This document shows, piece by piece, positions 1,374 to 3,551 of a stretch of 5,626 bases of DNA. The stretch lies in the IMG/VR virus record IMGVR_UViG_2645727555_000026, positions 1-5,626 of that record. One strand, 5' to 3'. The position numbers and the translations under genes were made by a program. The number at the start of each line of letters is the position of its first letter. The first letter of the stretch is position 1. The notes under the pieces are model-generated. The model worked only from the letters and a program-made list of their open reading frames with translations, made no database searches and was not told the DNA's origin. This DNA comes from a virus (Duplodnaviria > Heunggongvirae > Uroviricota > Caudoviricetes).

Positions 1374-1646
1374 TTACCTCCAGATGCGTTGCTGGAATGT
1401 GCGGGACGGACGCGGCGGGCGTTCGGAATAAAGGAGCCTGACGTAGATTATCCAGTGACGGTAGTCGAGGCTAAGGGCTTTCTTAAACTCATACCCACGT
1501 CTGCGGTAGTTATGAATCAGCCATTCGGCCTGTTCTTCAGTGCAGGGATCGTGCTGATACCAGTCATATTTGAATGTGTGAGAACACCGCCCTTGCCTGC
1601 TGGCAGGGGCGATATCAGAATTGTGATGTTTGGTATTGTGCGCCAT
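1374..1646 (-). CDS. Hypothetical small phage protein, about 90 aa; an alternative TTG start at 1700 would give 108 aa
   Basis: ORF from the track (1374..1700) with an internal ATG at 1646 (MAHNTKHHNSD...). Its TAA stop at 1376..1374 abuts the DUF968 GTG start, suggesting translational coupling. No recognisable family motif and no strong SD for either start, so start and function are uncertain. Confidence 0.5.
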   Translation of the reverse strand: MAHNTKHHNSDIAPASRQGRCSHTFKYDWYQHDPCTEEQAEWLIHNYRRRGYEFKKALSLDYRHWIIYVRLLYSERPPRPSRTFQQRIWR

Positions 1647-1716
1647 CGGTTTTCTCTGCTGGCGCAGCAGGTGCCAGTTGTTCAAGCTGGCGTGCGGCAA
1701 TATTGTCTCTGATTTC

Positions 1717-1746
1717 TGTTGTCGTCAACAGGCAACGTGCTATCAT
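1717..1746 (+). promoter_or_regulatory. Putative sigma70 promoter of parDE overlapping a short palindrome (possible ParD operator), inside a divergent promoter region
   Basis: TTGTCG (1719-1724), 16-nt spacer, TATCAT (1741-1746), about 35 nt upstream of the parD ATG. TGTTG (1717-1721) and CAACA (1726-1730) form an inverted repeat around the -35. On the opposite strand TTGACG (complement of 1721-1726) could serve as a -35 for the leftward operon. Pattern-based only. Confidence 0.35.
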
Positions 1747-1781
1747 CGAATGGTGTTCTATCCTACTCCGTGAGGTTTACC

Positions 1782-2039
1782 ATGCGTACAACCCAACAAT
1801 TCAGCATTACATTAACTAACGAAATGGCTGACATGGTGCGCGCCCGTGTGGCTTCCGGTGCCTATGCTTCAGAAAGCGAGGTCATTCGTGAAGGGCTTCG
1901 CGCACTGAATGAGCGCGATAAAGCAATCGAAGCGTGGTTAACGCATTCAGCCGCCCCCTCTCTTGATTCTATCCGCGAAAACCCAAACAACGGACGCTCC
2001 ATTTCACAGGTTCGCGCCGCGATTCGATCCGGGAAGTAA
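1782..2039 (+). CDS. parD: Type II antitoxin, ParD-like (ribbon-helix-helix, COG3609 type)
   Basis: 85 aa from ATG 1782 with GAGG SD 6 nt upstream (the track's upstream TTG start at 1719 is less likely). Sequence MRTTQQFSITLTNEMADMVRARVASGAYASESEVIREGLRALNERDKAIEAWL matches the ParD-type motif (..SASEVIR..LR.L.ER..). The stop lies 5 nt before the toxin start, the usual antitoxin-first TA layout. Confidence 0.85.
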   Translation: MRTTQQFSITLTNEMADMVRARVASGAYASESEVIREGLRALNERDKAIEAWLTHSAAPSLDSIRENPNNGRSISQVRAAIRSGK

Positions 2040-2044
2040 TCTGC

Positions 2045-2344
2045 ATGACATATGAAGTCATCATTACTCCTGAGGCCGAAGAACAAATAATCAACCTGCA
2101 CAGATATATAACGGAGAAAGCAGGGAACGTCATTGCTGACAATTTTGCCAATGCGCTTCTTGATTATCTTGATGGGTTTTCTACATTCCCGCATCGGGGC
2201 AATAAACGCGATGATATTCGCCAGGGGATGCGGGTAACTCATTTCCGCCACAGAACGATTATTGCTTTTGCCGTTGATGGCAGAAAAGTCTTTATTGTCG
2301 GTATCTATCATGGTGGGCAAAGTTATGAAACCGATTTCTTATAA
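2045..2344 (+). CDS. parE: Type II toxin, ParE/RelE superfamily (ParE-like)
   Basis: 99 aa, MTYEVIITPEAEEQIINLHRYI...FPHRGNKRDDIRQGMRVTHFRHRTIIAFAVDGRKVFIVGIYHGGQSY. Size and conserved pattern (Y.V.IT..AE.D, P..G..R.D.R.G.R, HR..I.F.V.G..V.I..I.HG.Q) are typical of ParE toxins. Immediately follows the ParD-like gene. Confidence 0.88.
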   Translation: MTYEVIITPEAEEQIINLHRYITEKAGNVIADNFANALLDYLDGFSTFPHRGNKRDDIRQGMRVTHFRHRTIIAFAVDGRKVFIVGIYHGGQSYETDFL

Positions 2345-2425
2345 ACTTTTACCCACATCATTCCGGTGTTAGAATTAACCGTCCGCCCCCCTCTCTTACT
2401 GGCGGATTCGTAGGCTATATAAATC

Positions 2426-2462
2426 AAAGATCCCGGCTCATGTTTGTGTCGGGATCTTTTTT
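2426..2462. terminator. Rho-independent terminator hairpin, probably bidirectional, shared by the convergent parDE unit and the minus-strand three-gene operon
   Basis: Perfect 10-bp inverted repeat AAAGATCCCG (2426-2435) / CGGGATCTTT (2450-2459) around a 14-nt loop, followed by a T-run on the plus strand (TTTTTT, 2457-2462) and preceded by an A/T-rich tract that gives a U-rich tail on the minus strand. It sits 80 bp after the parE stop and about 10 bp after the small-peptide stop. Confidence 0.7.
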
Positions 2463-2469
2463 CGGCGAT

Positions 2470-2553
2470 TTATCCCCAGCGGCAAATCGAATACACCACC
2501 AGCGCCACCGCCATCGCAATTCCTACCGTTGTGAATGCTTCAGGCCTGGTCAT
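2470..2553 (-). CDS. Unannotated 27-aa hydrophobic (single-pass membrane-type) peptide, third gene of the coupled operon
   Basis: Hand translation of the minus strand from ATG 2553..2551: [30 protein letters not shown] at 2472..2470. The ATG overlaps the TGA stop of the upstream 114-aa ORF (ATGA), with GGAGG (complement of 2563-2567) 9 nt upstream. A hydrophobic core is followed by a basic/aromatic RW end, and the terminator hairpin follows directly. Below the ORF-track size cutoff. Confidence 0.5.
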
Positions 2554-2894
2554 CGTAAAACATCCTCCACGCTTGTCAGTCCGTTTCGCTCCAGGTAGTC
2601 CATCGCCTTATCCGGCAGTTTGCAGTCCGGCTTCGCTTTCCTCAGTTGCCAGGCTAACTGCTTTACCTGCATAGTTAACTCGTCGACCAGACGCTGATAC
2701 CCCACTGGTTTGTATTCATGCAATTTACCGGCTGGCTCTGCTGCCAGCGATGCCAGTGCGATTTCCAGAACAGCAATATCCATCTTATATGTGCGGATGA
2801 TGTCATGGTCGATTGTGCCCGGTATACACAGTCTCTGTGCTTCAATAGTCTCCTCTGCGTGAGCTATTAACTGCTCTCTGGTAATAGTGGTCAT
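2550..2894 (-). CDS. Hypothetical 114-aa protein (predicted mostly alpha-helical), middle gene of the coupled operon
   Basis: ORF from the track. ATG at 2894..2892 overlaps the TGA stop of the upstream 171-aa gene (ATGA) and an AAGGA SD lies about 9 nt upstream. No family motif recognised. Confidence 0.7.
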
Positions 2895-3406
2895 GCCGCG
2901 TTTCCTTCTTTCTTATTAACAATTACACCGTCATATATTTCATTAAGGTGCCCTCTCAACTCCATGCGCCTTAATGCAGACAACATGTAATCGCATTCAA
3001 CCTGCTTATTTCCAGTAAATGGCTTATCGTCAGGATTACCCCAACAGCAATTACCCTTGGGCCACCCATGTACTTTCCGTACTCTTCCGTTAACAACGTG
3101 AAGTAATCCCCAGCCAGGTGGTAAATCCTCAATTGAAATAATTCCCGGCTCACTAATAAAGAATCGCCAGTCGCCCATTCCAAGAGACGGATTTTTACGA
3201 AAACGCTTTTTTCTATCTGCCAACAAGTCAGCACGAGAACATTTCGCCTCTATCAGGCATGATGCTGAATTTCTGAATCCCATAGCATCTGGCTGTTCTC
3301 CGGTACTGGTTACAGCTATAAAGCGGTCATGAAAACAAACCTTGAACCCGTTGCGCTTAAGGAACTTGTACGCAATCTGACAGAGTTCGCGGTGTGTTAA
3401 CGCCAT
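2891..3406 (-). CDS. Putative PD-(D/E)XK-fold nuclease-like protein (171 aa), first gene of the coupled operon
   Basis: The track ORF 2891..3436 starts at a TTG; ATG at 3406 with a strong AGGAG SD (CAAAGGAGAGTGAT-ATG) is the more likely start. Sequence: helix with Glu ([17 protein letters not shown]), beta-strand [12 protein letters not shown] (D40, codon 3289..3287), then 13 residues on, CLIEAKCS (E53-x-K55, codons 3250..3242), i.e. a PD...(D/E)XK arrangement. The C-terminal half has no recognised motif. Fold assignment is a motif-level inference. Confidence 0.7.
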
Positions 3407-3551
3407 ATCACTCTCCTTTGATGCGAATGCCAGCAAGCCAGTTTCTTATGCCGATATATTCAGCGTTCCTGAAACCGCTTTTTACATACGCTGGGCTAAA
3501 AATGAAGTTATCGCCAGAGATCGCGAAGACTGGAAGCGCATCTCCGCATCA

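Follow-up and report, generated by a model that had tools for sequence, protein, structure and literature searches.

Several described toxin-antitoxin systems resemble the prophage-borne parDE pair analysed here. The classical ParD-ParE systems compared are those of plasmid RK2, Caulobacter (ParD1-ParE1, 3KXE), Mesorhizobium (ParDE3, 5CEG/6X0A), V. cholerae (ParDE2, 7R5A), M. tuberculosis (ParDE1, 8C24), and P. aeruginosa (ParDE, 6XRW). The cryptic lambda-like prophage CP-933P of E. coli O157:H7 carries the three-component system PaaR2-PaaA2-ParE2 (PDB 5CW7/5CZF) beside its immunity region, and its toxin likewise has the ParE fold. In K-12, the cryptic Qin prophage carries relBE and hokD, together with rem, just before a 90-aa ORF and the DUF968 gene ydfU. 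RelE belongs to the same superfamily as ParE, but to the mRNA interferase branch, and its antitoxin is of a different family. PfiT/PfiA is an accessory type II pair with a ParE-fold toxin on the filamentous Pseudomonas prophage Pf4 (9W3A). A role of PfiT in limiting phage production has been reported, the deletion of pfiT raising Pf4 production (PMC12328805). As for ParDE-I, it is an enterobacterial ParDE-type module of mobile elements, reported on more than 150 IncI/IncF resistance plasmids, and the expression of its toxin leads to filamentation and SOS-dependent tolerance (PMC6614396).

The window (the whole stretch of DNA that was analysed, 5,626 nucleotides) contains a parDE pair and the following features around it.

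1374-1646, minus strand: left flank, outside the cassette; conserved 90-aa phage ORF (phrog_1212) leading the DUF968-RusA-Q block (RefSeq in L001, the prophage of strain 2013C-3342; PHROG)
1697-2468, plus strand: whole parDE cassette, 772 bases (comparison with related prophages)
1716-1731, no strand: inverted repeat CTGTTG-tcgt-CAACAG over the -35 hexamer, candidate ParD operator (read from the sequence)
1719-1746, plus strand: candidate sigma-70 promoter of parDE, TTGTCG (1719), 16 nt, TATCAT (1746), with the extended -10 TG at 1738-1739 (promoter scan)
1782-2039, plus strand: parD, 85-aa antitoxin with a ribbon-helix-helix (RHH) DNA-binding domain (profiles, phrog_6494, matches to solved ParD)
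2045-2344, plus strand: parE, 99-aa toxin of the ParE branch of the RelE/ParE superfamily (PF05016, phrog_5232, fold)
2426-2462, no strand: intrinsic terminator, hairpin with 15-nt arms (2426-2440 / 2445-2459) and T6 at 2457-2462 (inverted repeat, folding)
2470-2894, minus strand: right flank, outside the cassette; 114-aa ORF (2550-2894) and a possible 27-aa hydrophobic peptide ORF (2470-2553)

As in the classical systems, the gene of an RHH antitoxin comes first, and the gene of a ParE-fold toxin of about 100 aa follows after a tiny gap. Both proteins fall within the family profiles, and the structural match lies at TM 0.67-0.72. In contrast to the classical systems, identity to the solved ParE toxins does not go beyond 14-25%, and this clade occurs mainly on Enterobacterales prophages. 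The ATG of parD follows a GAGG at 1772-1775, and exactly 5 nt (TCTGC, 2040-2044) separate the two genes. Minus-strand genes flank the pair on either side, namely the DUF968 gene (323-1372) and the 90-aa ORF on the left and the ORFs 2550-2894 and 2891-3436 on the right. A preliminary description of this DNA had placed the pair on the strand opposite the surrounding phage genes and had called it a canonical antitoxin-first pair with 5-nt spacing. Both statements hold, the second being backed by the profiles, the fold, and a gene order kept in four other genera. Indeed, parD precedes parE, with a gap of at most 6 nt or a short overlap, in loci of E. coli, Salmonella, Yersinia, Erwinia, and Enterobacter. 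A minus-strand ORF of 152 aa (1862-2320) was rejected as a real gene because the profile matches and the substitution pattern fit the plus-strand frames. The search for known RNA families in the whole window returned two chance-level matches only, both outside the cassette.

The profile search suggested earlier for ParE/RelE and ParD/RHH domains placed both proteins above the curated cut-offs. ParD matched PF03693 over residues 6-51 (32.1 bits, cut-off 21) and TIGR02606, the CC2985 type (53.8 bits, cut-off 46.2). It belongs over its full length to phrog_6494 ('antitoxin', E 1.7e-56) and has sequence matches to seven solved ParD antitoxins (3kxe_C, 7ycv, 7b22, 6x0a_a, 7ycs_D, 8c24_C, and 5ceg_A). 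Compared with an 86%-identical copy, pN/pS was 0.23 for parD and 0.17 for parE, and both genes are under purifying selection. Within ParD, the C-terminal part changes faster (pN/pS 0.38 for residues 51-85 vs 0.04 for the RHH part). This is suggestive of a partner-specific region that would bind ParE. The pair is an ordinary, previously annotated toxin-antitoxin pair and is not new, since RefSeq and PHROGs already name it as such. RefSeq lists these exact proteins as 'ParD family antitoxin' and 'RelE/ParE family toxin', both PHROGs families are in the category 'moron, auxiliary metabolic gene and host takeover', and the record of phage ArgO145 annotates both genes as a toxin-antitoxin system. 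The literature searches returned no work on the pair itself.

ParE matched PF05016 over residues 5-94 of 99 (40.4 bits, cut-off 23) and is a full-length member of phrog_5232 ('toxin', E 2.4e-42). PF05016 covers both branches of the superfamily without separating them, the RefSeq label spans both as well, and RelE, YoeB, and YafQ structures do appear further down the fold search. The toxin could therefore be taken for a RelE-like, ribosome-dependent mRNA endonuclease and not for a ParE-type gyrase poison. This is highly improbable in view of the structural matches. With the AlphaFold model of ParE (pLDDT 84.5, pTM 0.76), Foldseek ranks 1-22 in the PDB were all ParE-type chains (TM 0.63-0.76), whereas RelE, YoeB, and YafQ reached only 0.40-0.49. 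The ParE-type matches came from Mesorhizobium, P. aeruginosa, M. tuberculosis, V. cholerae, Caulobacter, and E. coli O157 (ParE2), along with PfiT and PrpT. Moreover, the partner is a ParD-type RHH protein, above the TIGR02606 cut-off, and not RelB, YefM, or Phd, and the sole sequence-level PDB match of the toxin is 6x0a, a ParE. The closest solved relative is 25% identical. As modelled, the toxin fold appears nearer to ParE toxins than to ribosome-dependent RNases.

Not all proteins with the ParE fold poison gyrase. Other activities have been described for PrpT and PfiT, which are among the matched structures, and the target of O157 ParE2 is not regarded as settled. Since some proteins with this fold have other or unsettled targets, we infer gyrase as the target of ParE by analogy with the family.

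The pair also differs from the toxin-antitoxin system of CP-933P. The toxins share the fold (TM about 0.70) but only 16-18% identity. No third gene lies inside 1697-2468, and a DNA-binding RHH ParD takes the place of the short PaaA2 (PF21217); a separate PaaR regulator is absent too. The parDE pair lies in the late-early region and not beside the immunity region, and one E. coli prophage (L009) holds both parDE and a PaaA2-ParE pair.

The preliminary description had given the pair its own putative promoter with a palindrome, and the scan indeed finds the 1719-1746 site overlapping the 1716-1731 repeat. Promoter-like sites are, nonetheless, no commoner in the region than in shuffled sequence (5 found vs 3.6 expected). 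The core of the repeat, GTCGTCAA, is unchanged in 8 copies from 5 genera despite unrelated flanks, and the TGCTAT block of the extended -10 and the leader and RBS blocks upstream of parD are invariant in all 8. The palindrome itself is not upheld by compensatory changes in distant copies. Because its symmetry is lost in the Yersinia and Enterobacter copies, we infer only tentatively that the repeat may serve as a ParD operator and that parDE may be autoregulated. The repeat tool missed it because its 6-nt arms are under the 7-nt minimum of the tool. A LexA (SOS) box was considered at the same place, as CTGT-N8-ACAG is the LexA core. The central bases are not rich in A and T, and the outer ones are different in ArgO145/VT2phi_272 (GTGT..ACAA), in Salmonella, and in Enterobacter; the resemblance was treated as coincidence. 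A divergent promoter-like site lies on the minus strand (TTGACG 1728-1723, 18 nt, AATATT 1704-1699). Its -35 reads the invariant GTCGTCAA block in reverse, and its -10 is shared by the E. coli, Yersinia, and Erwinia copies but is not conserved in those of Salmonella and Enterobacter.

At the other end, the terminator hairpin is predicted to be stable on the plus strand (-23.2 kcal/mol, z -5.5) and on the minus strand (-17.4 kcal/mol, z -4.4). A simple terminator scan overlooked the 2426-2459 hairpin because its loop is beyond the limit of the scan, and folding recovered it. The terminator may work both ways, because on the minus strand the hairpin is followed by UUUGAUUUAU. It had been proposed that the terminator is shared with the convergent minus-strand operon. 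The hairpin and the convergent geometry are there, but the hairpin is part of the cassette rather than of the operon next to it. It falls between the cassette boundaries, and relatives without the cassette lack it and have a different sequence after the peptide ORF. From the geometry, it is plausible that the terminator also serves the minus-strand genes.

A comparison with related prophages lacking the insert, as the preliminary description had advised, sets the boundaries of the cassette at 1696/1697 and 2468/2469. On the left, homology ends at 1693-1697 in phage vB_EcoS-689R5 and in five E. coli prophages without parDE, and the homology to ArgO145 begins at 1699. On the right, it picks up again at 2469 in two prophages (L004 and L008). 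In genome-wide junction searches, most matches end at 1696/1697 and 2468/2469. The left flank is present in 2334 of 5426 complete E. coli genomes, and parDE lies beside it in only 328 of these; at the right flank, the pair occupies the junction in only 238 of 1370 genomes. The pair is thus an accessory insert and not a core gene. The right flank is convergent with parE and accompanies the cassette in ArgO145; the frame of its peptide ORF (2470-2553) is broken in two relatives. With a predicted promoter and terminator, presence or absence with sharp boundaries, and differing contexts, the segment has the features of an accessory ('moron') cassette.

Base composition is less telling. The pair had been called visibly AT-richer than the DUF968 gene, which is true of the cassette (47.0% vs 54.8% GC) and of parE (42.3%) but not of parD (52.7%). 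Other genes of the window are similarly AT-rich (ORF 2891-3436, 44.5% GC; xis, 42.9%). As only parE is AT-rich and lies within the range of the window, composition was rejected as a discriminator of foreign origin.

In lambda-like prophages, addiction and defence cargo is exchanged at the site that precedes the DUF968 gene. Elsewhere this swap slot contains hokD, the rem-hokD-relE-relB group (K-12 Qin), or an NgoMIV-type restriction-modification pair. The parallel with Qin, drawn in the preliminary description, was found in K-12 MG1655, where the order is ydfU - rem - hokD - relE - relB. The Qin relBE genes are, in contrast, on the ydfU strand, while parDE is antisense here, and there is no DNA homology past position 1663 of the window.

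The cassette is not confined to this slot. It is found in another region (early-left) of the Stx2a phage ArgO145, and diverged copies with the conserved promoter block occur in Salmonella, Yersinia, Erwinia, and Enterobacter, on prophages and on one island. The Yersinia copy is in a tail module and the Enterobacter copy in the island. The exact ParE protein occurs in 1049 blocks of an assembly index, and the pair was found in Shiga-toxin-producing E. coli O26, O103, O111, and O145 and in Stx2a phages. As for plasmids, the nearest relatives are 47-53% identical. When 72,556 plasmids were searched by tblastn (E <= 1e-5), only 3 Escherichia records gave a match, against the more than 150 plasmids reported for ParDE-I, which is therefore not a close relative.

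These contexts bear on the possibility that parDE tunes the life cycle of the prophage. ParE might restrain or trigger phage production, or antiterminated lytic transcription antisense to the pair might lower ParD and free ParE. PfiT, second-best among the structural matches (9w3a, TM 0.68-0.72), is the toxin whose deletion reportedly increases Pf4 production (PMC12328805), and parDE converges with early phage genes with a single hairpin between. The identity to PfiT is, however, only 15-16%, and PfiT comes from an inovirus of another host. The cassette also occupies unrelated positions (late-early here, early-left in ArgO145, tail module in Yersinia, island in Enterobacter), so dependence on one transcriptional context is disfavoured, and the window has lost its immunity and replication region. 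A life-cycle role is therefore quite unlikely.

The window had been described as a prophage, and lambda-like phage genes do surround parDE, but the prophage is a deletion remnant in which the late-early genes are joined at 3488/3489 to a truncated exonuclease gene. This junction was found in no complete E. coli genome. It might be argued that the module was once active and is now an inert hitch-hiker in a decayed prophage, the more so as the module itself decays in related phages, some with an orphan parD minus parE and one, phi349, with a split parD. Nevertheless, both ORFs are intact, and the cassette is 100% identical to copies in apparently complete prophages. The many exact ParE copies, the low pN/pS (0.17-0.23) indicating continuing constraint, and an intact predicted promoter and terminator make an inert state very unlikely.

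Taken together, positions 1697-2468 are probably a complete, self-contained type II cassette and most likely a selfish addiction module. A predicted promoter with a weak -35 and an extended -10 would drive a parD-parE transcript that ends at the terminator. By analogy with the ParDE family, the C-terminal part of ParD would wrap and neutralise ParE, and a ParD dimer, with or without ParE, would bind the conserved block near 1716-1731 and so repress the parDE promoter. Once synthesis stops, through loss of the DNA or shut-off of transcription, the labile ParD would decay, and the freed ParE would poison DNA gyrase, block replication, and induce the SOS response. The cassette is mobile cargo, placed antisense in a recombination hot spot before the 90-aa ORF - DUF968 - RusA - Q block. 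As an addiction module, it would stabilise itself and the surrounding prophage DNA, and exclusion of other phages may be a side effect. This maintenance role, although most likely, is assumed by default for such modules rather than found here. The prophage in the window has already been reduced to a deletion remnant, so the module did not prevent decay.

Alternatively, parDE might act mainly in anti-phage abortive infection. An infecting phage would cut transcription or degrade ParD, and ParE would halt the lysogen before progeny are made, sparing its sisters. The slot holds defence or addiction cargo elsewhere (the restriction-modification pair, hokD), the cassette is prophage-borne in five genera, and its own predicted promoter lies antisense to the phage genes. 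Several toxin-antitoxin systems are, moreover, established phage defences (discussed in PMC9519451). Still, ParD, ParE, and five neighbouring proteins had no match in PADLOC-DB 2.0 (E <= 0.01), and a known defence system was rejected on this ground. No reports of ParDE in defence were found in the literature, ParD and ParE are unmentioned in one E. coli functional screen, and a gyrase poison is slow compared with RNase toxins. Abortive infection as the main role is thus unlikely, and the addiction module is preferred.

As a discovery, the pair carries little weight, the proteins being already named in RefSeq, PHROGs, and the ArgO145 record. What is added here are the base-exact boundaries of the cassette, the evidence for a swap slot, and a conserved promoter block as a candidate for ParD binding. 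If ParE were an SOS-inducing gyrase poison, the release of the toxin could be linked to the induction of Stx phages; at present, this is speculation. It is also conceivable, though doubtful, that the cassette is one side of a conflict between phages. In that case, O157:H7-type Stx2a phages would have retained their orphan ParD as an antidote to the ParE of resident prophages bearing parDE and would so escape exclusion or addiction by ParE. The orphan ParD might also control the induction of Stx prophages triggered by ParE, since gyrase poisons induce SOS.

Further observations concern incomplete copies in related phages. In phi349, parD is split by an insertion. The O157:H7-type Stx2a phages (VT2phi_272, PA2, PA8, and about 40 other records) carry an intact orphan parD with the same promoter, and of parE, these phages retain the first 13 nt only.

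The interval flagged in the preliminary description is occupied by two plus-strand ORFs, parD and parE, flanked on both sides by minus-strand phage genes.

Features of the parDE region (window coordinates)
Left neighbours, minus strand: partial RusA gene, DUF968 gene (323-1372), 90-aa ORF (1374-1646)
1716-1731: inverted repeat CTGTTG-tcgt-CAACAG, overlapping the -35, read from the sequence by eye
1719-1746, plus strand: candidate parDE promoter, sigma-70-like, from the promoter scan; TTGTCG (1719-1724), 16 nt, TATCAT (1741-1746)
1782-2039, plus strand: parD, 85 aa; GAGG at 1772-1775, six bases 5' of the ATG
2045-2344, plus strand: parE, 99 aa, exactly five bases after parD
2426-2462: terminator hairpin, 15-nt arms (2426-2440 and 2445-2459) into T6 (2457-2462), 82 nt past the parE stop
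Right neighbours, minus strand: 114-aa ORF (2550-2894), 181-aa ORF (2891-3436)

The antitoxin-first pair on the opposite strand is real and far beyond chance, because both proteins exceed curated profile cut-offs and match PHROG families of the moron class over their whole length. ParD scored 32.1 bits against Pfam PF03693 (cut-off 21) and 53.8 bits against NCBIfam TIGR02606 (cut-off 46.2), and ParE 40.4 bits against PF05016 (cut-off 23). The PHROG matches were phrog_6494 "antitoxin" for ParD (E 1.7e-56) and phrog_5232 "toxin" for ParE (E 2.4e-42). Since PF05016 and the RefSeq name each span the ParE and RelE branches of the superfamily, folds were compared. The ParE model (20 homologues; pLDDT 84.5, pTM 0.76) shows the expected architecture, a two-helix hairpin and then a three-stranded sheet. 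In Foldseek against the PDB, ranks 1-22 were all ParE-type toxins (TM 0.63-0.76), namely Mesorhizobium ParE3, PfiT, PrpT, P. aeruginosa ParE, M. tuberculosis ParE1, V. cholerae ParE2, Caulobacter ParE1, and E. coli O157 ParE2, whereas YoeB, YafQ, and RelE reached only 0.40-0.49. The sole sequence-level PDB match of ParE is itself a ParE (6x0a, E 0.003), and the RHH domain of ParD matches seven solved ParD antitoxins. At every computable level, the pair belongs to the ParD/ParE family.

The best-supported account of its action is the standard one. ParD dimers would repress the parDE promoter and sequester ParE; once ParD replenishment ends, ParE would poison gyrase. For the window pair, we infer the gyrase target, ParE neutralisation, and autoregulation from the family. 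As a kind of module, parDE is already known, and RefSeq, PHROGs, and the GenBank record of the Stx2a phage ArgO145 already carry a toxin-antitoxin annotation. No experimental study of this particular pair was found in the literature. The two-component pair differs from the PaaR-PaaA-ParE type of O157 cryptic prophages and is not the same system as plasmid ParDE-I. One E. coli prophage bears two ParE-family modules, parDE and a PaaA2-ParE pair next to the immunity region (L009, 14542-15013).

Comparison with related prophages lacking the insert set the cassette boundaries at 1696/1697 and 2468/2469. Homology to phage vB_EcoS-689R5 ends at 1696 and restarts at 2469, with hok and another ORF in between in that phage. 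Five other parDE-less E. coli prophages break at 1693-1697, and the ArgO145 match begins at 1699. With junction-spanning queries, the left flank was found in 2334 of 5426 complete E. coli genomes, 328 of them with parDE at the junction, and the right flank in 1370, 238 with parDE; the remaining matches stop at 1696/1697 and at 2468-2474. The pair is clearly not a uniform core gene. As a whole, the cassette is matched in 375 of the 5426 genomes (at least 80% covered in 328), and all copies are chromosomal. Other prophages carry hokD, rem plus hokD, or an NgoMIV-type restriction-modification pair in this slot. The parallel with the K-12 cryptic prophage Qin, drawn in the preliminary description, was confirmed: its slot holds rem-hokD-relE-relB adjoining ydfU. 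The pair had also been described as AT-richer than the DUF968 gene. Indeed, cassette GC is 47.0% against 54.8%, but parD has 52.7%, and it is only parE (42.3%) that lowers the figure, at a level comparable to the 181-aa ORF (44.5%) and xis (42.9%) in the same window. Base composition is not diagnostic of the cassette.

The module also occurs in other settings. In ArgO145 and two related Stx2a phages, it is accompanied by the 114-aa ORF and sits next to an anti-repressor gene in the early-left region. Copies in four other settings (63-72% protein identity) are located between the tail tube and tape-measure genes (Yersinia prophage), adjoining Q (Salmonella prophages), beside lysis genes (Erwinia prophage), and in an integrase/IS island (Enterobacter). 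Every one of these copies keeps parD ahead of parE, the two genes being at most 6 nt apart or overlapping slightly. This variety of positions fits poorly with a possible role in tuning phage production, although such a role was reported for PfiT/PfiA of Pf4 and PfiT is structurally similar to the window ParE. The Yersinia locus (L024, 3738-5848) continues past the ParD-ParE homologues with another ParD-like ORF, only 63 aa long, and a gene for a YafO-family toxin, all of them wedged between the tail genes.

Promoter-like sites in the parDE region are not above expectation (5 against 3.6 in shuffled sequence), so the promoter call rests on conservation. A TG at 1738-1739 makes the candidate an extended -10 type. 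In a 130-nt alignment of copies including other genera, GTCGTCAA, TGCTAT (the extended -10), a leader block AAT.GT.TT..ATCC, and the ribosome-site TGAG are invariant upstream of parD, and the sequence beyond is unrelated. These blocks are the best evidence for what would be a functional parDE promoter region. The preliminary description had given the pair its own putative promoter with a palindrome; the promoter-like site and the repeat are present, but the Yersinia and Enterobacter copies do not preserve the symmetry through paired changes, so the repeat is a hypothetical operator. With arms of 6 nt, it falls short of the 7-nt minimum set for the repeat tool. The repeat also contains the LexA core (CTGT-N8-ACAG), yet it has a GC-rich centre, and other copies do not conserve the outer bases; the resemblance is probably coincidental. 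A possible divergent minus-strand promoter (TTGACG 1728-1723, 18 nt, AATATT 1704-1699) points toward the 90-aa ORF and DUF968. The -35 corresponds to the invariant GTCGTCAA block read in reverse complement. ArgO145/VT2phi_272, Yersinia, and Erwinia retain the -10 (TATATT), whereas Salmonella and Enterobacter do not.

The terminator folds at -23.2 kcal/mol on the plus strand (z -5.5; 0 of 200 shuffles as good) and at -17.4 kcal/mol on the minus strand (z -4.4), followed there by UUUGAUUUAU. Its proposed sharing with the minus-strand operon holds for the geometry, but the element belongs to the cassette, as cassette-less relatives have unrelated sequence past the peptide ORF (2470-2553); "shared" describes geometry, not function. 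Directly past the parE stop, 2348-2462 (plus strand) contains a promoter-like TTTACC, 16 nt, TAGAAT with a TG, then a GTCCGCC/GGCGGAT hairpin and the terminator hairpin. The layout resembles a small RNA of about 80 nt; an Rfam search of this segment gave no match, and a 117-aa ORF replaces its equivalent in E. coli strain SCU-171.

Three observations agree with a selfish maintenance role: the other cargo found in the hot spot, the module's independence of context, and its own transcription signals. Abortive-infection defence by parDE is possible, but no PADLOC model supports it and no paper backing it was found in the literature.

Both genes have low pN/pS ratios. For parE, the ratio to the 92%-identical SCU-171 copy is 0.17 (pS 0.276, pN 0.047). 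A full HMMER search across 1.84 billion representative proteins gave 1136 related clusters at E <= 0.001, so the family is large and ordinary; close homologues (63-91% identity) are almost only from Enterobacterales. Divergence of the SCU-171 copy (L008, 4086-4648, against window 1782-2344) is uneven. The pS of 0.03 in parD against 0.28 in parE points to a breakpoint of recombination located between the two genes.

Furthermore, 45 of 49 cassette-matching phage records, mostly O157-type Stx2a phages, share only 1699-2058 at about 86% identity (L006, 2501-2860, in VT2phi_272). The similarity runs through the promoter, parD (85 aa, intact), the 5-nt spacer, and on into parE for 13 bases (ATGgCATATGAAGT) before the sequences diverge. 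These orphan parD genes therefore derive from a full parDE pair whose toxin gene was lost. They were noted, unexplained, in a 2025 paper (PMC12502783). The orphan is still under purifying selection: between the window parD and its 86%-identical VT2phi_272 counterpart, pN/pS is 0.23, with 0.04 for the RHH half and 0.38 for the C-terminal one. In phi349, a 1.3-kb insertion splits off the 5' end of parD. We consider it quite unlikely that intact orphan ParDs serve as anti-toxins against cassettes like the window's. Downstream of the orphan lie a small "lipoprotein" ORF and an HTH (HigA-like) antitoxin.

The preliminary description placed the pair in a prophage, of which the window contains a remnant. 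A deletion or recombination junction at 3488/3489 joins the late-early genes to a truncated exonuclease gene, with an ORF of only 530 aa where relatives have more than 800, and xis comes next. To the left of the junction, the sequence shares 99.7% identity with the late-early region of the 2013C-3342 prophage; to the right, it matches mEp460-like phages at their exonuclease-xis end (89-93%). The immunity and replication region is absent in its entirety. The junction was found in no complete E. coli genome of the collection.

Among the neighbours, the 181-aa ORF shows a PD...E-A-K pattern (QPDAMGF...CLIEAKC) typical of PD-(D/E)xK nucleases. Its Pfam search gave no match, and its similarity to a PHROG "DNA repair protein" family is weak (E 0.0035); the 2013C-3342 counterpart is a frameshifted pseudogene according to RefSeq. 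On the minus strand, 2470-2553 could encode a 27-aa hydrophobic peptide, with an ATGA overlap with the 114-aa ORF stop. The DNA is conserved, and its coding status is doubtful because in phage 689R5 a 1-nt deletion disrupts the reading frame and in SCU-171 codon 3 is a TAG.
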